From: an uncultured Campylobacterales bacterium
GTDB lineage: Bacteria > Campylobacterota > Campylobacteria > Campylobacterales > CAZXTK01
Assembly: GCA_964643665.1 (NCBI GenBank)
Contig: CAZXTK010000001.1
Location: forward strand, 1 to 38,384
Length of the DNA stretch: 38,384 bases
Direction of reading: 5' to 3'
A model generated the notes under the pieces. The model had not been told where the DNA came from. It did no database searches and saw only the letters and a list, made by a program, of their open reading frames with translations. Of the stretch, positions 1 through 32,617 are shown piece by piece. Positions within the stretch are counted from its first letter, which is position 1. Every line of letters starts with the position of its first letter. The position numbers and the translations under genes were made by a program.

Positions 1-3000
1 TTAATATTTGTATCATTAAATGCAATATTACTCACATAAGGCAATAGAGTATCTAACATAACATTTATAAGAGTGCTATTGTCTGCAAGATATGTATTAT
101 TATAATAGTCTTTAATGCTATCTTGTAAAACACTCAAAGTGATATTGTTTTTAGATGCAATATTATCATCAACTCTAAAATTAAATGTTATATTTTTTGC
201 CAAAATAGCAACACTTGAACTTGTAGCACCATCAAAAGATAAATTATCAGATAAAGTTATAATATTAGATGATCCATTTTGATAAATATCTTCATCAAAT
301 TCTATATAAGCAGTTACGATATCACCATATCTAATTACATAATTTGATAAGCTTATACCAACTATGATTGGTGCTTTTGTATCAATATCATATGTTGCAA
401 TAAAACTAACATTTGCTCTATTGCCTAATCTATCGCTCCATGCCGTATTTGAAATAGAGATATTAGAATTATTAGTCTCTATGCCAGACCTTGGAGAATA
501 CCCAGTAGTATACACCCTATTCATATCATTAGTAGCAAACTGTGTTGGTGGTGCAGGGAAGGTTAAATTATATATTAATGAACCATTTGCATTTGTCATA
601 TTAATATCACTAAGTTCAAAATTAGTAATAGGCTCACTAAATTCAAATTTAAGCATATAATCTCCATTAACAACATTAAACGGATAAGCATTATTTAATG
701 TAACATTTAATTTAGGGGCTAATGTATCAAACATAAAATCAATTCTGCTAGCATTTTCGATAAACAAGTTACCTCGCATATCAAATATTGCATCTGCTAA
801 AGCTATGCCTTTTGCATCTGTTCTGTTTGCCAACAATGATACATTTGCAACTCTCTCATCTATAGATGCATTTGGCGTAATAGTAAAATACCATACACTT
901 GTATTACTTGCACTTATAGGAGCAAAGTTGCTTATCGCTGCTTGGTTTTCGCTAAATTTGATATTTGCATCTTTATTTAATGCCAAATTAGACATATTTT
1001 CACTAAACACAAGTGTGATGTTAGCACTCTCGCCAACAAGTAGGGTGGTTTGATTTGCACTAAAACTAACTAAAGTGGGAGCTAATGTATCTATTGTTAA
1101 ATTGCCAAATAGCTGTGTTTGTGGTTGACCTAGAGTCACATTAAATTCATCCATAATAGTTGCACTTGTGTTATCTACAAGAATAGTTACATTATCAAGC
1201 AATGGTATGTTTTCATCTGGTGTATAAATAAATGTCCAGTTATTAGAGTAGTTAGCACCATTGATAACATCTATATTCTCAGCTGATAAATTGCTAAGTG
1301 TTCCATTTGTCATTGTTATGTTATTTAATGACACGCCTCTAACATAAGTGTTGAATATCACATTCATTTTGGCACTGTCGCCCACAATTAATTTTGTAGT
1401 ATTCATTGTGATATTAACAACTTTTGGTGTAATACTTGAGATTAAATATTCACCACTTGTAGTAGCTGATGAAGCTCTGTTGCCGTATTTATCTGTCCAA
1501 GTAGTATTTAAGACATTAATAAACTGATGTCTTTGAACAATATCACTTTTAGGCGTAAGTGTTGCAGTAAAATATGACCCATTTACATCTGTAAAGTTTG
1601 TTAGAGCTACTGCCTTATTATCAAATGCGTAAGTTGAGTTATAAACAATATCTGATGTGTTAAATAATAAAACATCATCTCCACCATTAATATTTATATC
1701 AAACTTACTTACATTTTCATTAAATGAAAAAGTAACATTACTTGTTGCATTCTCACCCAATATAGATAACGAACTCATATCAATATCTAAAGTAGGCAAA
1801 AGAGTGTCTATAATAATACTTACATTTATTTCTTGCTCTTTAATTGTATTATTTCGCTCATCTGTAATAGAGCTTACATCAAAAGTTGTAAAATACTCAA
1901 AAGATATATTTTCATATGGAACATATGTAAATTCCCAAGTATCACTAAGAGTGCTTAGTGTGCCTGGGGAGACAAGTGTATATTGACCATGTGTAATATT
2001 AAATGCATTTAGCCTAGATGGCTCACTAAATGTCATTTTAATGGTTGCTTGTGTGCCTGCTAATAATAAATTCATATTGCTTGTATTATACAAAGTCGTA
2101 TTTGTTGGGGTAACAAAATACAATTCATCTATCTTTGGTTTTAATGTATCTGTTGTAATTGCATTAATCACCCAAGTGCTATTATCTGTATATTTATTTT
2201 GATATTTATCAACAATAGAGCCATTAGATAATATTGTTATATTTAAAGTTGTTAATAAACTAATATTGTCTTGTGGTGTCCATACAGCACTATATAGTCG
2301 TGGTGTTATAGCTACCACATTGCTAACTTTTCCAAATGGTGTAAAGAAATCACTCGCATTCACATTGCTAACATTTTCACTAAATGTAACATTAAATGAA
2401 GTGTTTTCACCAAAAATTATAAGGTTTCTTTCCACACTAACATCTGTAATACTTGGTGGCAGAGTGTCTATGGCAATACTTGGCGTAGAAGAGTTAACAA
2501 AAGGAGCATTACCTAATTTGTCTAACCATTTATTTGTTGTGATATTTAAAATATTAACATGGTTTTCGATATTTAAAAAAGCACTAAATTCTGCCCTAAA
2601 AGTATTATTAGCAACCACAAGAGTCATAGGAGTAGTAAAAGCACCGACAGATTGATTAAAATCAAAATCAGCCACACTTAAAGTGCTTACGTCAATATTA
2701 TCACTAAATAAAAGTGAAATATTTGTGCTTATGTTATCAACTGTAAGTGTAGCTCTTGATACATTCAATGTTAGAGTTGGTCTTAGAGTATCAACTTCTA
2801 TGCTTACATTTTTATAAAATGTGTCTCTAAATGTGTTATTCCTCATATCTAAAATATCATTGCTTGATTGTATAGTAAAAGGAACATTGGACATATAATC
2901 AATATCATCAATTGGCGTATATACTATCTCCCATGTATCAGTCATTGAAGAAGAAGATGTTACCAACACCACACTACCATTTATGGCGGATATATCCGCT

Positions 3001-6000
3001 GCCTTAAGCCCTGTTACATTTTCACTAAATGTTATAATAAATGTTTCGTTTTCATGATAAATAATCTTATTATCAGTAGCTGGGGTTAAGGATATATTAA
3101 TAACCATAGGCAATAATGTATCCACACTAACAGCATCTAATGCTATATTTTGATTAGGCTCTAAAGGGTTTTGATAGTCATCTTCTATATTATTTGTATT
3201 ATTTATTATCACATCAATAGAAGTATCAAAACTTATATTCATATATGGTGTAAAATTAGCTACCCAAATACTAGAATTAGTTGCATTTACAACGATATTG
3301 TCTATGACGCCATTATTAGAGTATATATTAGCATCTGTTATATTATTAACACTCTCACTAAATGTAAGATACAATTTACTTACTTGTGGTGCTTTATTAT
3401 TAGCTTGAACTTTTAAATATGTTTTTTCTAAAGACACATTAAGAAGTTTTGGTTGCTTTGTATCTATGACAGGTATTGTAACACTTGAATTAACCAATGC
3501 CTCATTTAAAATTAAATCACTCCATAATGCTTTATCAAATGTCATAATGTGGTTTTTAGTTTCTGTATCAGCATTTGGAGTATAAATTGTTGTATATACA
3601 AATGGTTGAGTAGATGACTTAACAAGTGCAGAGAAAGAACCAAATTGTGTGTTAAATGCCGTTGTAATATCTGTTATATCAAAGTCTTTTGGCTCTTCAT
3701 TGAATATAAATGTAAGTAGCGCTTCTTGACCTTTGATAACAATAGTGTCATTAGTGGTTATATTCAATGATGGTGGGAGCGTATCTATCCATATTGGCAA
3801 TCTAAATGTTTGTGTTTTAACAAATTCATTATTTGTTTGATCTTTAATTGTGCTAGTTTTGCTTAAATTAATATCAATAAAGCTTGCATTTGGCAATAAA
3901 TCAAAAGCTGTAAATGTAGCTGTCCAATTATATGTAACTGGTGGTTGTGCAAATGGGCTATATGGAGTTGGAACTGCGCCACCAACAAAGCTGATATTGC
4001 TTAATAATCCGCCAGAAACATTTATCTCGCCGTTTGCATAGGCTGTATCCAATCCTATTACATATGGTTTATTAAATTGAATTTTAATTTGTGTTGCATT
4101 ATTTGTGATATTTAACACCGATTCATCAAGAGTAATATTTACAATCTTAGGAAATGCGGAATCTACAACATAATTATTAGAAACAGACTTAAATACAGGT
4201 GTATTGCCTATTAAGTCTGTCCAAGTAGAATTTAATAACACACTAATATTGCCTCTTACCAACAGCTCATCTGCTGATCTAAATTTAGTTGTATATAATG
4301 ATGCATTTACAACTGTCCAATCAGCGCCACCTAACCAGCTATCATTTTCGTGAGACAAATCAAACCATACATCATTTGCATCAAAATCTTTTACTGCTTC
4401 ATTGAATGTAAAGTTAACATCTGCGTATGATCTATAACCAATAATTGTTGGTGCTAATGTGATATCTAAACTTGGTCTAAATGTATCAATCCACATACCA
4501 GCCATAGTTATGTTGTTTGGTATAAATGTGTTATTAAACTGATCTAAAATAGTGCTTGTTTTAGAATTATCAATCATAAATGTAACTTCTGTGTCATTTG
4601 TGATATTAACATTTGGAACAAACACAGCAGTCCAGTTGTGGTAATATTTATTACCATTTACAGTTTTAACATCAACAACATCTCCGTTTAGAGTTTTTAT
4701 ATTGCTCTCATCAAAGTTGGTTACATTTTCTCTAAAAATAAAATAAACAGTTGAGTTTGCACCATATTTAATAGTTTTGTTAGTCACAATCACTGCATCA
4801 AAAGTAGGCAATATGGTGTCTATTTCATAATTATAAGAATACGCTGTATCTTGCATATAGTTATATCTTGTATCAAGAACAGAAGATGTGTTTATATAAA
4901 TCTTATTATATAAATCTTCCACACCATTTATAGCTGTGAAGTTCACTTGATATGTATTAGTTCTTGGTGTTTTTACAGAATTAGCATCTAAGGTGATATT
5001 ATCAATATGCAATGCTTTTTCAATATCAAACCCAATAAGGGGTTCTGTTAACTCAACAGTTATAACGCCCTTGTTGGTGTCGCTTTGTGCTAGGCTCAAT
5101 ACTGACCTGCTAAGCGTGATTGTAACATTTGGTCGCACGGTATCTACTACATAATTAGGCGATGCGCTCTCAGCTGTGTCATTAGTGTTGGTAGATAAAT
5201 CTGCCCAAGATGTATTAGCTACTTTTACGCTTGAGAATAAATCTTCTGTGTTATTATTTGCCAGAATAACAACACTATATGCATCTCTATCCCACTGAGC
5301 GCCTGTATATGTAGAGTTGATTATCCGTTTAAATGTATTAGGAACTATTGTTACATTATTATCAAGAATGATATCACTCTCAGTGAAGTTGCTTGCATCA
5401 TTTGCTAGTCCTATTCTTTTGTTAAATGAGAATGTAACAGTTGCATTTGTATGGTTATCTAAGTTTAATAAATCATACTCCATAGTTATATTTAAATGTG
5501 GTGCAACAGTGTCTATACTAAAATTCCCACTATAAGAGCCATTATCTGGATATTGATTATGTAGAGCATACCAACTAGTTTTATCAACAAATAAGCGCCT
5601 ACTTAACGCATAGGTATTAGCTTTAGGTGTTATTTTGTATTGCAGGTTTTTTGGGTTTGTTGTTATGTCTATTGGAGTCCAAGTAAGATTATCATCAAAT
5701 TGAACATCAGAAGCTACATTAAACCCAATAGGCTCTTTACTAAACGAAAAATTCACATACCCTACTTCGCCCACTGTTAAATACTGCCCTGTTCCATCTC
5801 CATATTGTTTTAACAAAGCAGAATCTTCCACTTCATCAACATAAGTTATATTTACATATGGTGGAATTGAATCTATCTCGAAATTAACACTAGTAGAAGA
5901 GTTAGCAGCCCTGTTTAATGTCCAACCCACCCATGTGTCTTTTGATAGTGTAATATTATTAACTCTTTGATATATGTATTGTGTTGTAGCAAAAGTAACA

Positions 6001-8330
6001 GCATAAATAGAACCATTATATGCTCCTACATTACTTTGAACCAATCTTAAATCATGCAATGTTCCATTTGCATGGCTTACATCAATATCTGATAATGTAA
6101 ATGCTTTATCTGCGCCCAAAGAAATATCTGTTATAGGGGCCTGTGTGAATTGCAAATAGATTGTTACATTTTCATGTGTGCCAATAAAAGTTTGCTCATT
6201 GCCATTTGTATCATTTTGAATAACTATTTTAACTTCTGGTCGTTTTGTATTTATATAAAAAGTATTAGAATAATCATATGTGGTAGTAGCATATGGTTTA
6301 TTGCCTGCTAAATCAGTCCAATTATTAGAATTTAAAGAGATATTAACTGCTTGTCTAAATGTATCATTTTTAGTATAAATATTTCCTTTCCATTTCTTCA
6401 TATCAGGAGTTAGTAGCGTTAATGCATTTTGTGGTGTAATTCTTAAATTATTAGGCAATGTAACATTATCGATACTTAAATTAACTGCCTCGGTAAAAGT
6501 ATAATTTACCTCTCCTACCATATTAGGGTCAGTTATTAAATTGCCTGCTCTAAGATCTATTGGTGCTACATTAATTGTTGCATTTGGTCGCACAGTGTCT
6601 ATAATAAAATTATTAGAAAATACATTTTGAGATAATGGGTTACCTGCGATATCCTCAAGCGATGAAGTATCAAACATAATTGTATTATTTGGTATTTCTT
6701 GTTTGGCAAATGAATTAGCAATAACCTGAGCAGTATAATTTAATGAATTTGTATTTGGAACTAATGACCAATTTGCAATGGCTGCATTTGGTGTTGTTGA
6801 ATTTTTGAGCAATTTAATTGGTTCTGAAAATGCAAAATTAATATTGCTTAAATTATCATCTATGCTTAAATATAAATCATTTACGGTTATATTAACAGTA
6901 GGAGCTATGGTATCTTTAATGGCGTTTTGAGCATCGCTAGTATAAACACCGCCTCTAGTGGTCAAACTTACATTAAAAACTACATATGCATTAACACTTG
7001 TATAATCTCTAAAAGCACTTAAATCTAAATTGCTAAACTCAATATTGCCCGAGCCATATTGATTGGTTGTTGTATTAACCGCAACGCTATAAAGCACCGC
7101 TGTTTTGCTTACTGTCTTTGGGACACCTTGTTGCGTAACCAATAAATTTACTGTTGTTCCGTTTTTTTCAACTGGAATATTTTCAACATACCCTGTTATA
7201 TTATAATTAGCTTTGCCCTCATTATTGATATAAAGCAAGGCTGTTGGATCAGCTGGATTTACAACAACAGATGGAAAATGTGGGTCATAAAGAGCAGTTA
7301 TTGCAAAAGTAGCAGGGTTATTGAAACTATCTTTAATGCTAACATTAATCGTTGTTAAATTTACACTAACTGAGTTATTGTTTATTAAACTCGTAATATC
7401 AATATCCATTTGCCATTTGCCATTTGTATTTGCATTATCAACAGGATTTGCATCTACAATTGCATTATTTGTTAATCGTATAGGTGGATTTCCACTATCA
7501 GAGTCAATAAACACATCAAAAGTAGCACCAAAATCAATAAAATCGGTTACCCCTCTTAAAGTTGCTCTTTTAGCATCCACAATTGTAACAATATTATCAA
7601 CAGAAATTGATGTTATATTAATTTGTGCTAAAGTATCTTTTGTTATATCCATTTGATATGTTGCAATATTTTTTGCCACATCTAATATTGTAAATTTAGC
7701 TGTATAAACGCCATCTTGTGTAAATGCTGTATCATTAAAGTCAATATATGTAACCCATGTTCCATCAGATTGCAATGAAACATTTTTACTAAATACTAAT
7801 GTCCCATCTTGATAAACAAAATCAACAGTTAAATTTTGACTAGACTCTACATCTGTCGTATCACCTGATATTAAAATAGGTCCAGAAGCAACATCTGCTT
7901 TATTTATGCCATTTGGTATTGATGTATTTAAACCAGTAATATCATTAGCATGTATTTTGGCAGTTACATCTATGGTTACATTCTTAAAAACACTTCTAAC
8001 ATTGCCAGCTAAATCGGTTACATTAAACTTTATGGTAAAGTTTCGTGTTTTATTATTATCATTCACAACTTTGCTCAATAAATCGGTTATAGTATACGAC
8101 CAGTTTTCATTGTTTTGGTCAATGCCGGCCACCAAAGAATAATCATATAACCCAGTAATTGTTACATTAGGGTTAAACACGCCTTTATAAAATGAGCCAT
8201 TATTAAAAACCTTATCTACTGCTCCGCTTGTAGTTCCGTTTATAATAACATTAGAAAGTTCATACTGATTTATATAATTATCACCAGAGATTGTAGAAAT
8301 TGTTATATTTGGTTTAATAGTGTCTAAATA
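1..8330 (-). repeat. Array of at least 24 tandem bacterial Ig-like (BIg) repeats with D-T-x-x-P boundaries inside the giant ORF. It continues past the window edge.
   Basis: I located the boundary motif [IV]-D-[TS]-x-x-P-x-[LIV]-x-[IV]-[TS] in frame. The first base of the D (or N/S) codon falls at 8324, 6914, 6599, 6251, 5873, 5513, 5144, 4820, 4487, 4163, 3785, 3464, 3122, 2792, 2468, 2150, 1808, 1439, 1091, 728, 383 and 53. Spacing from 6914 downward is 315-381 nt. Each unit also carries F-[ST]-F/E-[SN]-E-x-[VI]-x-x-F...D-I, W/Y..F/Y-T-P and a terminal D..G-N, as in BIg domains of giant adhesins. Confidence 0.8.
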
Positions 8331-11300
8331 AAAAACACCAAGCGTTCCCGTATCAATAAATGTGCCGTCTGGTTTAGCAAAAAACAATGACATATTATTT
8401 GCACCTTCATATAATCTTATTCCTGCAAAATGAATTGGAGATATAGCAGTGCTTCCCACTTCTGAAAAATGTTCATTTTGCGGATCAGAACTTAATCCGT
8501 TAACGCCCACTTTAAAATGTAAATATCTAGGCATTTTGGATGTTGTCATATTTACATAAACAAGTTTGGTTATATTATCTTGTGAGCTATATCCCGTATC
8601 CCAATCGCTATCTAAGAAAATCTTTCCAAAAAAGATATCAACAACCTCTTGTATTTCAGCTACGGTGTCATATTTTTCCCCTCTTTGTAAAGCGCTAAGA
8701 GATGATAATTGGGTATCCATAAACTGAAGCATAGGAACAACAATACTATCAATAACCCTAGTAATTCCTAAATTAGCAAAGTCCTTTGCTGAAATATTTG
8801 ATGTATTAATATTTGTATCAGCTAAAGAAAATTTTGTAAATTTAATAGAGGACTCCATTATATTACTAACTTTTTGACATGTATCTTTTGTGGTGGCTTT
8901 TTGAGTAAGTATTACATCTTCAAATAAATGTTGAGCATGTGTTGAATATGAACTTGGAAATTGTGCTGCAATACCCAAACTAGCAAGCTCACTATCGCTT
9001 GGCATAGCACTGCCTTCATATATATTAGCAACAATAGTATATAAATCTTGCACCGTATCCAAATTAGGGACATCAGATTTTTCTATACAATGATTTACAT
9101 TAGGTAATGTGCCCACGGTATCAACTAAATAGCCATCAAAACTTCTTGCGATATTAGGATCTTTTGGTCCAATATAAACTGAGGACAAATTCTCTTCAGT
9201 AATATTAGATCTTGCACTACCGCTAGCACCATCAGCTCTTTTTTGAATGGCATCTAAAACACTAGCAATAGTTTGAGACATATTGTTCAATGCGGACTTG
9301 TTGTTTAATTCACTCATAGGGTAAGTGTTATCAATCATCAAAATAAAAGCGTTTGTATTATTATGCTCAATTGGAGGGTTAAGGTCTAAAACATTTATAA
9401 TATCATAATCAATAACGCCGGCAAAACCACTTAAATCATCTTTGTAACTTAAATTTGCTGCAACCGAATCTACCAAAGCAGTTGCTACTTGTATAAAGTC
9501 TAATCGCACTTTAGAATCTTGATAAAAAGATCTATTATCATCTTTATCATCATTTACAATTGAGTTAAATAATGCTAAAGAATCCCCTTTAACAAATGGC
9601 AAAGCTAATACATCTAACCCTGCTTCATCTATAGATTTTGAAGTATTATCTAAAATAAGTATCTGATCTACTACTGCTTGCAATGAATCTGCATTTTCTA
9701 CTGATGGTACATCTAAATTAGGATTATACAAATAACTACTCGTAGAGTTTGCAACAATCTCCCTAGGCCAATTACCAAATTCTTCAATTCCTATATCTTT
9801 ATAGTCATCTAAAACCACTGGTGAACCATTATTGGCTCTTTTGGCTGCTACTACTTTGGCAAGAGCATCAAATTGCAATTTGGCAAACTTAGTTAAATTA
9901 TCATAATGCACAATCGATGCGAATCTGTGTTTATAAATTACAAAACCATATCCCCTAAGATTTTCTTGAACAATAGTTGGTGTAATGGCTATATCATATA
10001 AAGAACTAACATTAAGCCCGTCTAAATTTCTATCAAAAACAGGAAATCGTGCTATCGTATGTAGCTGTGTGTTTATATTGAATATATTTTGTAATTTATC
10101 ATATGTATCTTTGTTAGACTCTGAGAGTTCATCTAAAAAAGAATTAAATAACAACATTTCATATGTTGTATCATTTGCAAATGCAAAATGTGCTGGTGGC
10201 CTATCAAAACCAAATTTACTATGTATAATATTCTCACTTAAAGACTCTGCAATATAAGGAGCTTGTATAGATTGAACAATGCGAGCAGAATGCACATAAT
10301 CAAATATGCCCTGACTACTATTTACATAATCACCAATAATAAAATCACTGTTTAAATAATCATTAACAAAATCAACTGTTTTAAGAGTAATATTAAAATT
10401 ACCCACATGTTGATAGTCCTCTAATATCAATCTACGATCTGCATCATTTGCATTAGCTGCTTTTACAAATTTATCTAAGGATATTAATAAAAAATTATGA
10501 ATATCATTAAGTTTAGTCCATGTGTTTACTTCATCTGCACCCTTACGGGCAATCAGTAAAATTATAGAAGGCATATTTTCAGGGGCAACAGTGCTATCAA
10601 GCATTAATTTATTTAAATCATCTGCTGTTAATGTTGTTGCATTGGTTAAATTTGCACCATTTGCTAAATTTTGCACCTTATCAACACTATCTCTAATTAC
10701 TTTTACAACATCATATGTATAATTTGCTCTTTGTATATCATCTCCACCATCATTTAAAACAGTATTAAACAAGGACATCTTATCATCAGTATCAAGTGGC
10801 TCTATACCAGCCACGCTCATATCGCTATCAGTTATATTCGTTTGATTGTTAATCATAAGATAAATTGCAGATGCAAAGGTTTTAATCTTGCTCCAATCAT
10901 CAACCGATGCCCTATCAATTAAAGGAGAAAACAAATATGTGCTAAGCAAATTGGCTTTTGGGTGTAGTATTCCAGCACTTGTATAAAATATATCTTCTAA
11001 AAGTCTTGGCTCAACATTTCCTGAGCTTCTACCCGCACTAAGTTTAACAAGGTCTAAATCTATTGTTGTTAAATTAGTAGCCAAATCGTTCAATTCTGCC
11101 ATAGTTTGGACATTAGCTAAACCGGCATTTTTAACTCTGTGCAAAAAAGCAAGAGTATTTGGATTTGTAATTGCATCATTAAAATGAAAATAATCCAAAG
11201 AAGTGGCATTAAATCTTGAATGAACATCTTCTGGCTCAGCATCTCCGCTAGCAACTTGCATTAGGGGCTCAACTTGTGTAATTATTTTGCCAACTTCTTG

Positions 11301-14300
11301 ATATGTATCTTTATAGCGCACATCATTGAATGTGTTTAAGACATCATTAATTAATTTTAATTTTTCAGCTTGGTTTATGCCGCTTAAAGCACCAAACCCT
11401 AACTTGCCAATTGCATCTTCTGTTATATTCTTATTATTATCAATAATATTTGAAATATGATCAACAATAATTTGAACCTTTAAGGGTGTATCAGTTTGAT
11501 TGCCTTGTATAAAAGCATTATTTAAATAAGACTCCATATGCGCTGGTGAAATGCCAACAAGATCTATTCCTGCTTTTTGATAAATAGCAGCTGTTGGAAA
11601 TGAAAATGTAGCAGTATTTCGCTCAGCTACTACTTTAATAATATCAAGTGATTGTTGAATGTCTGATATTAAAGCCTCCAATTCTACTTTTGTGTCAAAA
11701 TCCTTACCTACACCACCTGAAAGCCTATATAAAAAAGAGCCAACAAAATCATTAGTAATAGGGGTATCAAGCTCTAATAAATTAAGCTCATTAACGCTTA
11801 GAGCATATTTACCGTTACTATCTCTTGGCAACAAAGAGCCGGTTACTATCTTATGAATTTTGGCTACAACTTGAAAGATTGTATTAATTTTATCATATCT
11901 ATCTTTGCTTCTTTGTGTCTGATAATCATTTAAAATATCAGAAAAAAGATTAGCTCCATCTTGTGATGTATCTGATATCGGGATAAAGCGCAAGAGTTTT
12001 ATATTTCTCTTATTAATGGTGTTATTATTTGTAGGTATTGTATTGATAATATTTACAATATCTTGCAATGGTTTTTGTTTAGGGATATGAGTTTCATTTA
12101 TATCACCATCCAAAAACGAATTAACAAGCGCCAAATGCTTCACATTGACAATACCGGCTAATGAATAATCATTTAATGATAATGTTATTAAAGATATATT
12201 AGCTGTTGCTGCTTGTGCAATTGTCAACATTTTGTCATTCATAGCCTTAGAAATATCATCTAATTTTTTCATAGTATTTGCATCTTGTGGGTCATATGCC
12301 TTAAGTGCATACAAAAATGCATCCTTATTTAGTGCATCTACTGGTGGATTAATTTGAAGCTGGGCAAAATCTGCACCTGTGACATTAGCATCTTCTGGCT
12401 CAATATCGCCATTAGCAACACCAATAATATTTGCTATTGTATTTGCTATTTTAGCAACCTTATCATATGTATTTTTAAGAGTTTCGTTTGCATTGAGACG
12501 ATTAATTGCACTATTAAATAAAGATTGCTTATTGATTGAATCAATACCGCCTATTCCTAAGTTGCTTATATTTTGTATGCTTAAAGGTTCTCCATTTTGA
12601 ATCATAACAACACTATCTACTAAACCTTGTAGTTTATTAAGTGTGCGTACCGCATTCCCGTCAATTGGGTTATTATTTAAATATGTAGCTACTTTAGGGA
12701 GCAAGGCTGCTGTCATATTATCTATTTGAGCATCTTCAAAATCTGCTACAACCAATTTATCAGCACTATTTAGCTCAGCTGCATCTATAATCTTATTTGC
12801 TGCAATAAGTAATTGACTATAAGCTGCATTTAACTTGGGCTTGGTGTTATATGAAGATGGGCTATTAGCTTTTCTTATTAGCTTTTCTAAATATGGAATG
12901 TGGACATCTATCACTTCTGGCTTAATGCGAATTTTATGCCAATTTTCCACACTAACACTACCCGCATGCAAAGGTGGGGTGGCCATACTTATTATATTTA
13001 AAGAAGTTTTATATATGTTTTTTATTTTTTCATAAGTATTTTTATCCTCAATTGGTAAAGAATTTATAATAGAATTAAAAAGCGATAACTCATCTGAAGT
13101 TATTGCAACTATGTTTGGGGCTATACCAAGCCTTTTAAGATCATTGGATGTAACATTTTTAGTGGTATTTAAAATATCTCTGATAGAGTCAGCTATCGCA
13201 AAAACCTTATCAGGAGTAGAAGTTCTAGCGCCATCAATGTAATAATTATCTAAAAATGAATTAAAAATAGGCGCTTGGGTTTTAATGCCCAAATTAGTAT
13301 AGTCTTTTTGCGATAACCCCTCATTTGTTGCATTATGTGTCGCCGTATTGCTTTCTGCATACTTGGATATATTAATTAACCCATCAACAAAATCATTATA
13401 TGCTTTTTGCAAGCTATCTATATCAGTAATTCCAGGTCGAGGAAGAAGTCTTAACCTTGGCACAAAATAACCTAAGTTCACATCAGATATTTTTGGATTA
13501 AGCCCCAAAGCATCTAAATCGCTGGCTGTTAATGCACCTAAGAAACTAGATTCTTGTTGAAGTATCGCTCCTTCTAATCTATTTACTGAATAAATAATAT
13601 CTCGCAATTTATCTTTGGTTAAAGTATTAGCCGGGGTTTTTAAAATAATAGAATTTACCATATCTACAGGAAGAACATATGGGTAAATATTAGCTTTTGG
13701 ATAAACATTTAATGACTGATAATCATCTAATGTAGGGATGTTTTTCCCTGCTACCTTGCCTCTTTTTTGTGCATATCTTATAACATCTAAAACAGATTCT
13801 ACCGATAAAGCAGAAGCAACATCAGCAGCATCAGCAGTAGCTATATAATGCGAAGCATCACTTAAAACAACATCTCTAAGAGAAGCAGGATCAACACCAG
13901 CATCAAGATAATCGCCTGCATTTAACGAAGGTGGCTTAACACCATCTGTCGCAGCATACGAAACAATATTCTTTATGTTTTTGGGTTCTGTAGAAACACT
14001 AAATGTTAATGGGTCACCACCAACATATACAACAACATTGTATTTCATTCCAGCATCAGGAGGAGCTTTATAAAAAATAGGCAAGACGCTATCCCCTGGA
14101 GGAAGAGTATAAGTAGAGAGTCTTTTATTGCCTACAAATCCATGCTTAACATATACCTTAACTTCTCCACTTACACCCTTAACCACAATTCGTCCAGCCA
14201 ATCCCTCAGAGCTTGGTTGTAAATTTACAAAATTATTTAATAGACCATGCTTACTCTCATACCTGCCTAATGGTAGAAATGTTAAATTAGCATCAGCAGT

Positions 14301-18958: not shown

Positions 18959-20863
18959 TTATTGGGCTTCTAAAACGACTACATTGATTAATGGGAATTT
19001 ATTAAATTTTCTACCACAATATCTTTTAAATACTTTTTTAAACTCTTCTGAAAGAGTAAGTGGGTTTTTCATCACTGCTGGTTTAGCGCTCTCTAAACAA
19101 CTGCTAAGTAAACCTAAAGTATCTTTTATCATTATCTCTTCTTGTTTATTGTCTGTTAATCCATTTGTTTGGATATGTGGTTTGCCCGCAAAAGAGGCAG
19201 AACCAAAATCTACCGTGGCTACACAAAAAATAGCCCCATCTATACTCATTCTTTGTCTATCAAATATTATTTTATGTGGTATTTTTCTGTTTTTTTGGTT
19301 ATCTACGAATACTTTACCTGATCTAACTGTTTTTATTTTTTTAAGCTGAGTAGGAGAGATCTCTATTTGCTCACCTGCATGGAGTGCGTGAATATTTCGC
19401 TTTTGGATTCCGCAGTCAATGCCTGTTTGGGCATGTCTTAGCACATGGTTATATTCCCCGTGAATTGGCATAAAATATTTTGGCTTGCAAAGTCGTATCA
19501 TAAGTTTTTGCTCTTCTATGGATGCATGCCCAGAAACATGTATATCTGGATATGAAGTATGAGTAGCCACTTTTGCATCACATTTCATAAGCTCATTTAA
19601 AAGTTTAGACACACTTCCTTCGTTTCCGGGGATTGGTTTTGAGCTTAGAATTATCAAATCTTCTGGCTTAATTTTTATATGTCTATGCTCTTGAATGGCC
19701 ATTCTATAAAGAGCTGCGTTATTTTCGCCTTGTGAGCCTGTTGTTACAATAAACACCTCTTTGTCTAATAATTTATCAATAGAATGTGCATCTATAAAAT
19801 GTTTTCTATCATATTTTACATAGCCCAAATCTATTGCTAGGTTTGTATTTTTTTCTATACTTCTACCAATAAGGCATATTTTTCTGCCTTCTTGTATAGC
19901 AATATCTATGCCCTGAACCAATCTATGCAAGTTGGAGCTAAAAGTGGACATCAATATTCTACCTTTTGCGTTTCTTATTAATCTCTCTAAAGTTGGTCCT
20001 ACTGTTTTTTCGCTTCTTGTGATTCCGCCTCCATGTGAGTTTGTGCTATCGCTGAGCAATGCTAAAACGCCTTTTTCTCCATAATATGCAAATCTATGCA
20101 AATCAGTTGGATAATTATCTACTGGCGTATGATCTATTTTAAAATCACCTGTGTGGATGATTGTGCCTGCTTTTGTAGTAATGGCAAGAGAGCTACAATC
20201 AACAATAGAATGTGTTATATGCATCCACTCTACTTCGAACTGATCAATCTTTATTGCTTTTCTTTTTTCTACACTTCTAAAATAACTTTTAAGATGCTTC
20301 ATTTTATTCTCATCAAACTTCGCGCCTATCATAGCAAGTGGTAGCGGTGAGCCATAAATTGGAACTTGAATTTCCTTAAACAAATAAACCATCGCGCCTA
20401 TATGATCTTCGTGTGCGTGTGTTATTAAAATGGCTTTTATTTTAGAGCGTATGGTTCTTAGATATGTAAAATCAGGTATCAAAATATCTATACCAAACCC
20501 GCTCTCATCAGGGAAGTTCATACCACCATCTACAATCACGGCGCTATCTTCTGTTTCAATAACCATGATGTTTCCACCAATTTCATCTAGCCCACCTATT
20601 GGAGTAATTCTGACTTTGTTAGTGTTTTTTGTGTCAATCTTTGGTGTCAATCTTTGTTTTTGAATCTCTTCATTTGCCTCGAAGCTCTTTTTTAAATCAT
20701 TATTCCAGCCCTTGCCAGATGTTGGAACTGGTTTTTTCTTAGATACGGTTTTGGCATTTGGGTTGTTTGATTGCCCTTTTGCGCCATTATTATTTTTATT
20801 TTGTGGTTTATCTTCATTTGGTTTTTTGTCATCTGTAATTTTGCTAAATATCTTTGTTATCAA
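18959..20863 (-). CDS. rnj: Ribonuclease J (beta-CASP metallo-beta-lactamase) with a Lys/Asn/Pro-rich N-terminal extension.
   Basis: The motifs are HAHEDHIG, GDFKID and HVSGHAS. The first 85 aa or so are low-complexity, as in Helicobacter and Campylobacter RNase J. The track start at 20863 is a TTG. The gene is adjacent to ksgA, as I recall for H. pylori HP1430/HP1431. Confidence 0.9.
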   Translation of the reverse strand: MITKIFSKITDDKKPNEDKPQNKNNNGAKGQSNNPNAKTVSKKKPVPTSGKGWNNDLKKSFEANEEIQKQRLTPKIDTKNTNKVRITPIGGLDEIGGNIMVIETEDSAVIVDGGMNFPDESGFGIDILIPDFTYLRTIRSKIKAILITHAHEDHIGAMVYLFKEIQVPIYGSPLPLAMIGAKFDENKMKHLKSYFRSVEKRKAIKIDQFEVEWMHITHSIVDCSSLAITTKAGTIIHTGDFKIDHTPVDNYPTDLHRFAYYGEKGVLALLSDSTNSHGGGITRSEKTVGPTLERLIRNAKGRILMSTFSSNLHRLVQGIDIAIQEGRKICLIGRSIEKNTNLAIDLGYVKYDRKHFIDAHSIDKLLDKEVFIVTTGSQGENNAALYRMAIQEHRHIKIKPEDLIILSSKPIPGNEGSVSKLLNELMKCDAKVATHTSYPDIHVSGHASIEEQKLMIRLCKPKYFMPIHGEYNHVLRHAQTGIDCGIQKRNIHALHAGEQIEISPTQLKKIKTVRSGKVFVDNQKNRKIPHKIIFDRQRMSIDGAIFCVATVDFGSASFAGKPHIQTNGLTDNKQEEIMIKDTLGLLSSCLESAKPAVMKNPLTLSEEFKKVFKRYCGRKFNKFPLINVVVLEAQ

Positions 20864-31034: not shown

Positions 31035-31919
31035 TTATTTTAACAAAACCCATATACCCTTATGTATATTTGATATTGCATATGTATCTTGTATTTTAAT
31101 ATATCTTGTATGTTTTGGTATTTTATAATAAAACACATTTCTTTGCCTAAAAGACTTTTTGTAGGCTAATTGATTTAAATCTTTATCATAAAAAACAACA
31201 AAAGCATACCACTTGTTAAAATAACTAATCCTTATTTGTTTTGCATCCGACACTCTTATTAAAATAGGCTCAAAATAAAACGGCAACCTTACTTTTTCGT
31301 AATTTGGAATAGATATGGCCTTGTCAATATACGAATATGTAAACTCTAATTCATAGGCAAAATGGCTACTTATAGAATCATCGGCTAAATTAGTAACTTT
31401 TGTTAATCTTGTTCCGCAAGATAATAATGCCTCATTAAAAGCTATGATGTCAAAATATTTTGTAGATTTAATGACAATATTCCACTCTAAAACATTATTT
31501 TTGATGTATTGAAAAGAGGTGGTAGTTAAAGAAACATATCCTATTTTAGTTAAAACATCTTTTAGGACTTTAAAATCTTTAAACGGTGATTGGGTTTTTA
31601 AAATAAAATCAATCTTTAATGTTTTTGATAATTTATTATCTTCCTTTAACAATGAATTATCATATAAAATTTTATACACCTTTGCATAATCTATATGATC
31701 TAATATATAAAATTTATTTTGTTTTTTGAATAAAAAGTTTATTAATTTTTTGTTTTTATTGTATTTGTTTTCGCCTATTATGTTTTTGATATTTGCAAAA
31801 AGGGGCGATAAGTTATTGGTTGTATTGGTTTGTATCTCGCTACAATGCCCTAAGGTGCTAAAAAAAATACTTACAAAAAGCACACATAGCATAAGCTTTA
31901 TTTTATTTATTATTTGCAT
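31035..31919 (-). CDS. Hypothetical secreted protein with a signal peptide and unknown function.
   Basis: The N-terminal hydrophobic segment is LMLCVLFVSIFFSTLGHCSEI. Its start overlaps the stop of the upstream TrmH-family gene by 10 nt (31910-31919), which suggests co-translation. I recognised no motif. Confidence 0.5.
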   Translation of the reverse strand: MQIINKIKLMLCVLFVSIFFSTLGHCSEIQTNTTNNLSPLFANIKNIIGENKYNKNKKLINFLFKKQNKFYILDHIDYAKVYKILYDNSLLKEDNKLSKTLKIDFILKTQSPFKDFKVLKDVLTKIGYVSLTTTSFQYIKNNVLEWNIVIKSTKYFDIIAFNEALLSCGTRLTKVTNLADDSISSHFAYELEFTYSYIDKAISIPNYEKVRLPFYFEPILIRVSDAKQIRISYFNKWYAFVVFYDKDLNQLAYKKSFRQRNVFYYKIPKHTRYIKIQDTYAISNIHKGIWVLLK

Positions 31920-32617
31920 AATGATAGCTCTCTCATCAAAATAGCCCCTGCCACAGATACATTTAAGCTCTCTAAATTATTTATGGTTTTTACTTTGACT
32001 ATTGTATCCATTTTTGATTTTATTTTTTTGCTAAGTCCTCTATGCTCGTTTGATAACAGCAAAACTCTTTTTGTGTTTGGTTGCAATTTTACACAAGATA
32101 TATCCTCCCCGTCCATATTAGCACCAAATATTCTAAAACCTGCTTGTTTTAACTCATTTATACAATCACTTGAATTGTTTTGTTTAGATAGTGGCAAACA
32201 AAGAGCAAGCCCGCTACTTGTTCTAACAATTGCTGAGAGATTAATATTGTTTGGTGAAGAAAAAATAACACCGTCTATGCCAAAACCATATGCGCTTCTT
32301 AAAAGCGCGCCAATATTGCCCATATCTTGTATATCATCTAACATCAAAATAAATTCGCTTTTGTTTTTTTTGATAAGTGCCTTTAGGCTTACAAAATCGA
32401 CATCTTGTATGTCTAAAAAATATCCTTGATGGTTATTGCCTTGTGCAAGTGCTTGTGCTTTTTTAAAATCTAATTTAATAATGGGTTTATTTAAAGATGA
32501 GAATTTATTAAATTCATTTTTATCTAATTTTTTAGAAATAGCAAAATAAATTTTATTGATTAAATGTGGATATTTGTCTAAAACAAAAAAAACAACCTGC
32601 TTGCCATAAACAATCAT
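31910..32617 (-). CDS. TrmH/SpoU-family RNA 2'-O-ribose methyltransferase (RlmB-like).
   Basis: The motifs are NIGALLRSAYGFGIDGVIF, LLLSNEHRGLS and LESLNVSVAGAILM. The N-terminus (IVYGKQVV) resembles a SpoU substrate-binding region. Confidence 0.8.
   Translation of the reverse strand: MIVYGKQVVFFVLDKYPHLINKIYFAISKKLDKNEFNKFSSLNKPIIKLDFKKAQALAQGNNHQGYFLDIQDVDFVSLKALIKKNKSEFILMLDDIQDMGNIGALLRSAYGFGIDGVIFSSPNNINLSAIVRTSSGLALCLPLSKQNNSSDCINELKQAGFRIFGANMDGEDISCVKLQPNTKRVLLLSNEHRGLSKKIKSKMDTIVKVKTINNLESLNVSVAGAILMRELSLCK

Follow-up and report, generated by a model that had tools for sequence, protein, structure and literature searches.

What does the long N-terminal part of a giant protein in an uncultured Campylobacterales bacterium consist of, and what could it be for? 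The question is raised by contig CAZXTK010000001.1 of GenBank assembly GCA_964643665.1, of which positions 1 to 38,384 were analyzed; this whole stretch is called the window in the following. Its first 15 kb are taken up by one open reading frame (ORF) on the minus strand, which codes for a giant protein. An initial annotation, made from the sequence alone, had described residues 385-2160 of this protein as an array of small helical modules with a design like that of the Gram-positive protein Ebh, resembling GA and FIVAR domains and located in a lipoprotein upstream of an array of Ig repeats. Here, we describe the repeat organization, the predicted structure, the relatives, and the gene neighborhood of this helical array. 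It consists of 27 modules of three types in a super-repeat of ~195 amino acids (aa), it belongs to a large repeat family, and it is probably the stalk of a surface protein.

Organization of the helical array

A generic module hidden Markov model (HMM) divided aa 384-2163 (window positions 8592-13931, minus strand) into 27 contiguous modules, each 52-71 aa long, and had no match in the giant protein outside this region, in good agreement with the limits given initially (residues 385-2160) and with the estimate of 20 or more modules. Since the model was trained on 26 of the 27 modules that it tiles, the independent evidence comes from the leave-one-out scores given below. The order of the modules is fixed: A lone C module is followed by eight full A-B-C triplets and a partial A-B unit. 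Each triplet forms a super-repeat of ~195 aa composed of three differentiated modules, namely A (~65 aa), B (~66 aa), and C (~55 aa). LFNS-type motifs were found at aa 667, 854, 1045, 1243, 1437, 1644, and 1837, i.e., every ~195 aa, and autocorrelation of aa 385-2160 using BLOSUM scores showed peaks at offsets of 194 (z 4.2) and 197 (z 3.7) and weaker ones at 68 and 140. Alignment of seven 200-aa windows on the LFNS-type motif also resulted in a 195-aa unit with three successive modules. In view of the motif spacing and the autocorrelation, the period of 70-90 aa suggested at first has to be replaced by the ~195-aa super-repeat of three modules.

A module opens with a [hydrophobic]-[ST]-x-x-[DN]-[LFY]-x-x-[LA]-G-[IL]-like pattern. 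A hydrophobic helix and a T/S-capped long helix come after this opening, in that order. Of the motifs that had been assigned to every module, the opening with G-[IL] is indeed shared by the modules, whereas LFNSxxN and TY[DE]K[IV] are confined to type A and thus to one third of them; strict regular expressions for these two motifs gave six matches each. The three module types are mutually related in register, with hhalign P values of 4e-5 (A-B), 1.6e-4 (A-C), and 7e-4 (B-C). Conservation in the module mostly concerns residues of the hydrophobic core, Gly, and helix caps, and the type-specific polar motifs LFNSxxN and TYDK are kept across the super-repeats.

Authenticity and divergence of the repeats

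Motifs of this kind could in principle reflect the N/I/L/D/K-rich composition of a genome with 30% G+C, with no true repeat behind them. The low number of strict motif matches and the lack of a detected DNA tandem repeat would fit this explanation, but the following results refute it and leave it a negligible probability. When each super-repeat was left out in turn and scored against an HMM of the others, 26.7-84.4 bits were obtained, while the best of 100 shuffles per unit reached 5.3-13.8 bits; composition alone is therefore excluded. An HMM of seven units recovered the two units that it had not seen, at aa 484-633 with an independent E-value (iE) of 6.7e-19 and at aa 2028-2120 with an iE of 1.8e-7. 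Furthermore, the autocorrelation has its peaks at 194 and 197 aa, and the full 195-aa profile is matched by hundreds of unrelated proteins (best E ~1e-217). The internal periodicity on which the initial annotation depended is thus present in the autocorrelation and in the held-out recovery, and its motifs are no product of composition.

The copies are highly diverged in protein and DNA, as had been noted from the start. The super-repeats are mutually 17-29% identical, self-blastp of the array region returned the identity match only, and the program TRF detected no long-period tandem DNA repeat in the array. The only direct DNA repeats were imperfect ones of 23-40 nt with 60-84% identity; spacings of 567, 582, 1164, 1200, and 1224 nt are near multiples of ~585 nt, other spacings are not. 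The low identity between neighboring units and the lack of DNA repeats suggest an old array of fixed length rather than one that recombines and varies in length.

Predicted structure of the modules

For structure prediction by AlphaFold2 (AF2), the super-repeat at aa 634-828 was used, with an alignment of the nine paralogous units as the only alignment input. The resulting model was entirely helical, with a predicted local distance difference test score (pLDDT) of 89.7 and a predicted template modeling score (pTM) of 0.84. In this triplet model, each module is composed of a 6-residue helix, a loop, a helix of 8-14 residues, a one-turn helix, and a helix of 14-23 residues. A single A module (aa 641-705) was predicted with a pLDDT of 91.6 and helices at residues 5-11, 22-34, and 43-60. 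In the layout of a module, a short N-capped helix that ends with G-[IL] is accordingly connected by a loop to a 13-residue helix, after which come a one-turn helix and a helix of ~18 residues. The initial description as an array of small helical modules is thereby confirmed at the level of confident, all-helical models with three main helices per module. The high pTM says that the three modules of one triplet take a defined overall arrangement in the model, and the array as a whole would have the shape of an elongated rod.

Comparison with GA and FIVAR domains

The modules had been compared with GA, FIVAR, and GA-like domains, and they could be truly homologous to the Gram-positive GA/FIVAR three-helix bundles of Ebh and Embp, although far diverged from them. 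A forced global hhalign alignment of the module profile with the GA module of PAB falls in the register that the initial annotation had pointed out (G-I on G-I, N..IN on N..L, T.EEV on T..K[IL]), each module has three main helices, and the hierarchical design is common to the array and Ebh. With a P of 0.055-0.075 and a score of 10.9, compared with a maximum of 10.2 in 30 shuffles, the alignment lacks significance, and the kinship found no support in the searches made with profiles and models. At E ≤ 1, aa 1-2160 matched no Pfam family, including GA (PF01468), FIVAR (PF07554), GA-like (PF17573), and DUF1542 (PF07564). None of these four families was found by Pfam in four long homologues or, at E ≤ 10, when 75 modules (26 of this protein and 49 of relatives) were scanned singly as had been recommended; in the latter scan, no family was matched by more than two modules. 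For FIVAR, the Pfam HMM is the sole basis of this verdict. NCBIfam had nothing in the helical region.

The triplet and module profiles were also searched against all PDB sequences, which yielded chance matches only (E ≥ 0.066) and no GA chain at E ≤ 10. The GA structures considered were 1GAB, 1PRB, 1TF0, 2VDB, and 1GJS, of which those of the PAB GA module (1GAB, 1PRB, and 1TF0) were confirmed to be in the PDB copy searched; structures of Ebh and Embp are presumably contained in it as well. Among 42 matches of the single-module model to the PDB in Foldseek at E ≤ 10, there was no GA, Ebh, or Embp chain. The best of them was the MLLE domain 7pze (E 0.66; template modeling score TMq 0.50), and canonical three-helix bundles such as the protein A domain and affibodies reached a TMq of only 0.31-0.37. 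With the triplet model, the best match in the PDB had an E of 2.3 (TM ≤ 0.23) and that among viral models an E of 1.3 (TM ≤ 0.30). Consecutive modules are thus predicted to be all-helical with three main helices each, as anticipated, but canonical three-helix bundles match the single-module model poorly, and, judged from the Foldseek listing, the module does not appear to be a compact bundle of the GA type. In addition, helix 1 of a GA module has ~15 residues, compared with only 6-7 in these modules. Taken as a whole, we regard true homology to the GA/FIVAR bundles as very unlikely, and the shared G-I...N..IN...T..E.V pattern would go back to N-capping boxes of helices and to a glycine at a helix end.

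Some other small helical domains were considered as well. A helix-hairpin-helix or extracellular-DNA-binding function, prompted by the h-x-x-h-G-[IV] hairpin, was rejected, as no helix-hairpin-helix family occurred among the listed weak Pfam matches of the 75 modules. UBA and MLLE, like further small helical domains, appeared only as single stray matches.

A family of 195-aa repeats

An exhaustive search with a profile of the nine units of this one protein yielded 388 cluster representatives at E ≤ 1e-3, 229 at E ≤ 1e-10, and 70 at E ≤ 1e-30, with a top match at 1e-217. The top relatives have 10-50 matched stretches each, which extend over profile positions ~2-190, and many relatives have 4,000-7,000 aa. 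As the relatives match these positions repeatedly, the A-B-C triplet is an old, conserved unit. A word-indexed protein search using aa 1-2160 and an alignment of the 75 modules found nothing; since the exhaustive search found hundreds of relatives, the word index misses the family and neither of its two null results carries weight. In the relatives, the canonical module reads P-[ST]-x-x-D-Y-x-x-AG-[VI]-TGV-x-x-x-NL-x-x-[IV]-N-x-x-L...[VA]-D-T-x-x-[EK]-[IV]-Q-x-[IL]-V-D, and the type C modules of the giant protein look nearest to it. An acidic loop, D-x-D-T, is also conserved in relatives.

The few relatives with an organism name are from Sphaerotilus mobilis, Herbaspirillum huttiense, Psychrobium, SAR86, and a metagenome-assembled genome (MAG) of Desulfobulbaceae. 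They span Beta- and Gammaproteobacteria and Desulfobulbaceae, and one short contig is labeled Flavobacterium. Big_12-like domains were present in 10 of 154 retrieved relatives, located before or after the helical array. One relative carries 16 GGxGxD motifs together with RTX/serralysin-type NCBIfam matches, which is consistent with secreted adhesins. Lipobox-like N-termini were found in just two of the retrieved relatives (P0096, …FSGC; P0138, …FTAC), both with the composition of AT-rich genomes, so that lipoprotein-anchored versions may form a subgroup of the family.

Pfam or NCBIfam scans of seven relatives gave no model for the repeat, none of 30 relatives looked up had an informative name for it, and a non-exhaustive literature search found no paper describing the 195-aa repeat family. 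The initial view that the architecture is uncharacterised therefore stands within the searches made, but it is not peculiar to Campylobacterota, as 388 clusters share the repeat and those with an organism name are from several Gram-negative lineages. By its sequence, the giant protein belongs to an extensive family of helical repeats in Gram-negative giant surface proteins and is unusual there for its lipobox.

The public names of the relatives include "hypothetical", "Ig-like domain-containing", "cell wall anchor protein", "beta strand repeat-containing", "RimP", "YjgA (DUF615)", and "DUF1192"; those on P0020, P0021, P0154, P0013, and P0007 are clearly wrong or uninformative. Spurious Pfam matches above threshold also occur in relatives, e.g., Phage_GPL with 36.7 bits on P0005. 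Retention-module-like N-termini, suspected by eye in homologues, had no NCBIfam match in P0025 or P0028, and this idea was dropped.

The giant gene, its N-terminus, and the host

The giant gene is a single open frame on the minus strand from the ATG at position 15080 to position 3, where the window ends, corresponding to at least 5,026 aa; a second ATG at 15050 is an alternative start. On another metagenome contig, the gene codes for at least 5,198 aa and its 3′ end is again cut off; when metagenomes were scanned for the missing 3′ part, 0 matches were obtained. A related-locus search among GTDB species representatives found no close relatives of aa 1-2160. The NrdB protein encoded on the contig shows 74-83% identity to proteins of Arcobacteraceae MAGs, and therefore the assignment of the host to Campylobacterota, already made in the initial annotation, holds.

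The N-terminus of the giant protein, MFILLKTITRMLNIKRRVALVGLNIFASIFFLGC, has a basic KRR, a hydrophobic core, and a lipobox-like F-L-G-C34. Judged by pattern, it has the form of a bacterial lipoprotein, i.e., a signal peptide that closes with a lipobox and its invariant Cys, as had been proposed. The adjoining domain (aa 35-383) matched no Pfam or NCBIfam model; it may have a role in envelope attachment.

Proposed function of the array

We consider it probable that the giant protein is located on the surface of an uncultured bacterium of the Arcobacteraceae and that its helical array, encoded at window positions 8592-13931 (minus strand), is a stalk that acts as a semi-rigid spacer. In Ebh, ~3 nm are added per module; with the same value, the array would span ~70-90 nm. 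It would separate the lipid-anchored N-terminal domain at the envelope from the distal part, consisting of at least 20 Big_12 domains and the missing C-terminus, and the adjacent beta-barrel/SH3 protein (see below) may help to anchor or display the giant protein.

Several points weigh against this proposal. Neither the secretion route nor the distal end can be read from the window, which does not include the C-terminus. By default, lipoproteins of diderm bacteria are oriented toward the periplasm, the lipobox F-L-G-C is judged by pattern only, and surface exposure is an assumption made from the size of the protein and the Ig array. Finally, the pTM of 0.84 covers one triplet only and says nothing on the stiffness between triplets.

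Alternatively, the array could mainly provide a multivalent ligand-binding surface, with each module or triplet binding a matrix or host polymer, similar to the "Velcro" formed by the FG repeats of Embp on fibronectin. There are precedents in Embp (PMC9302970, PMC7587433) and in albumin-binding GA modules (PMC3962080), the conserved polar motifs LFNSxxN and TYDK could be surface sites, and the best fold match, although non-significant, was the peptide-binding MLLE domain. This match is weak (E 0.66; TM 0.50), no ligand is known, and the conserved positions are mostly those of the hydrophobic core, Gly, and helix capping. Ligand binding as the main role thus seems unlikely to us; it is compatible with a stalk function, and the two roles are not mutually exclusive.

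Comparison with known systems

Like Ebh of S. aureus and Embp of S. epidermidis, the protein described here is a giant and presumably surface-located protein with an array of ~50-70-aa helical domains as its bulk. The Ebh-like design recognized initially is a real one, in the sense of a hierarchy of small helical domains in a larger super-repeat, and concerns design only, not homology: The 27 modules follow in fixed A-B-C order with a 195-aa period, and no sequence or fold link to Ebh or Embp was detected. Per 195 aa, there are three module types here, compared with two per ~126-aa repeat in Ebh. Helix 1 is very short in this array, the Big_12 Ig-like domains come after it, and the host is diderm with an N-terminal lipobox, compared with the Gram-positive anchor of Ebh and Embp. 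In Embp, module types likewise alternate in fixed order to form a super-repeat, with two bundles per repeat (PMC7587433). A stalk or a "Velcro" is the working model for both those proteins and this one.

Helical-module rods serving as stalks have been described in Gram-positive bacteria for Embp (PMC7587433, PMC9302970) and for Giant1-3 of Apilactobacillus kunkeei, which are AlphaFold-predicted stiff helical-repeat rods and are called previously undescribed by the authors (PMC12863079). Giant1-3 share with the protein studied here a size of several thousand residues and, as presumed for the latter, an extracellular nature and a helical stalk for terminal domains (PMC12863079). They differ, by description, in that they are from Gram-positive lactic acid bacteria and are formed by parallel helical repeats and not by discrete ~65-aa domains.

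The extenders of RTX adhesins of the type I secretion system (T1SS), such as MpIBP RII and LapA, are presumed to resemble this array in that long repeats project distal domains off a diderm surface, and at least one relative of the helical family carries RTX repeats. The extenders described are Ca2+-stiffened beta-sandwich (Ig-like) domains, and in a survey of RTX adhesins helical bundles occurred only as isolated inserts (PMC5550230, PMC7493085, bioRxiv 10.1101/2025.09.30.679566). In contrast to the N-terminal retention module of these adhesins, the giant protein starts with a signal peptide with FFLGC, there was no retention-module model among the NCBIfam matches of aa 1-2160, and its C-terminus is outside the window.

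As in this array, the stalk of periscope proteins is a single chain of tandem domains that fold independently, and three-helix bundles are among the stalk folds listed for them; the defining features of the class are repeats of high identity and a variable length (PMC8201768, PMC9704523). High identity in protein and DNA is not found here, with super-repeats of 17-29% identity and no long-period tandem DNA repeat.

Ig-like array and neighboring genes

The coordinates of all features are given in Table 1. Downstream of the helical array, there is an array of Ig repeats, as had been recognized initially, and these are Big_12 domains. The Pfam model PF19078 matched with an E of 6.8e-99 and 325.3 bits (cut-off 27) in 17 stretches, and an HMM made from the protein's own Ig repeats found 20 contiguous domains of ~110 aa each. 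This array runs past the window edge, so that the C-terminus of the protein is missing. The transition region between the two arrays (aa 2164-2722) is presumably also Ig-like from its position and composition.

N-x-S/T sequons were counted 160 times in aa 2164-5026 (window positions 3-8591), compared with 66 expected from shuffles, and D/E-x-N-x-S/T 17 times compared with 6.3 expected; in the helical region (8592-13931), the enrichment of N-x-S/T was milder (37 versus 22). These statistics are inflated by repeat conservation. N-glycosylation is known in some Campylobacterota, and the enrichment could reflect either N-glycosylation or a structural motif of Big_12.

Upstream of the giant gene lies the gene of a 401-aa protein with two "GWCKL" SH3-like motifs (SH3_3, E 0.0027) and a candidate C-terminal beta-barrel (OMP_b-brl, E 6.4e-6 and 26.9 bits, just below the cut-off of 28.7), ending with the residues RYFF. 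The TAG stop codon of this gene abuts the ATG of the giant gene, no terminator-like site was found between them, and the gene pair recurs on two other metagenome contigs; the two genes are probably co-transcribed. The divergent gene of a 353-aa PAS-domain protein adjoins the pair, is kept beside it on the other contigs, and may code for a regulator.

Two further ORFs on the plus strand are most likely spurious. One of 155 aa (18882-19349) is located antisense within the RNase J gene, and one of 171 aa (31914-32429) antisense within a 235-aa ORF at 31910-32617, which by eye we take to be a TrmH-like gene.

Table 1. Coordinates of the features described in the window.
Feature	Position	Strand	Basis and remarks
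20 contiguous Big_12-type Ig-like domains, aa 2723-5009	54-6914	-	Pfam PF19078 and own-repeat HMM
Transition region, aa 2164-2722	6915-8591	-	weak Big_3_2 (E 0.012) and Ig_like_ice; no match of the module HMM or Big_12-like HMM
Helical array, 27 modules, aa 384-2163	8592-13931	-	module HMM tiling, leave-one-out scores, AF2 all-helical
Terminal partial super-repeat 9, aa 2011-2158, A and B only	8607-9050	-	held-out iE 1.8e-7; left-out 31.3 bits
Super-repeat 8, aa 1810-2010, more degenerate	9051-9653	-	left-out 26.7 bits, shuffled maximum 9.8; C module weak (module HMM iE 0.023)
Super-repeat 7, aa 1604-1809	9654-10271	-	alignment; left-out 52.0 bits
Super-repeat 6, aa 1408-1603	10272-10859	-	alignment; left-out 84.4 bits
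Super-repeat 5, aa 1212-1407	10860-11447	-	alignment; left-out 71.4 bits
Super-repeat 4, aa 1017-1211	11448-12032	-	alignment; left-out 83.4 bits
Super-repeat 3, aa 829-1016	12033-12596	-	alignment; left-out 84.4 bits
Super-repeat 2, aa 634-828	12597-13181	-	AF2 pLDDT 89.7, pTM 0.84; left-out 80.7 bits
Super-repeat 1, aa 445-633, A-B-C	13182-13748	-	held-out iE 6.7e-19 (7-unit HMM); left-out 57.3 bits
Leading single C-type module, aa 384-444	13749-13931	-	module HMM iE 7.7e-7, alignment
N-terminal domain, aa 35-383, family-less	13932-14978	-	outside module HMM matches; no Pfam family at E ≤ 1
Signal peptide with lipobox-like FFLG-C	14979-15080	-	Cys34 from ATG 15080; translation MFILLKTITRMLNIKRRVALVGLNIFASIFFLGCSF; pattern match only
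Upstream 401-aa protein: signal peptide, SH3-like motifs, C-terminal outer-membrane beta-barrel	15081-16286	-	Pfam
353-aa protein, PAS domain (PAS_9 E 1.2e-7), coiled-coil-like C-terminus	16386-17447	+	Pfam

Implications

As convincing matches in the PDB are lacking for both the module and the triplet, a new small helical fold is possible. We tentatively suggest, as a somewhat open proposal, that the module and its A-B-C triplet could be a new domain family, possibly with a new fold, and an alpha-helical class of extenders in diderm giant adhesins beside the beta-sandwich extenders; in this organism, it would occur together with a lipid anchor and with the operon-linked beta-barrel/SH3 protein, a mode of attachment unlike the T1SS retention module. 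Beta-sandwich extenders, such as those of RTX adhesins and inverse autotransporters, are the basis of models for the projection of adhesive domains by Gram-negative bacteria, and the 195-aa family points to a second, all-helical extender family. A definition of this family would improve the annotation of many giant genes, and the 195-aa unit is tractable for structural and mechanical studies. With the lipobox and the adjacent beta-barrel gene, the way in which a Campylobacterota cell displays a protein with over 5,000 residues becomes a testable question.

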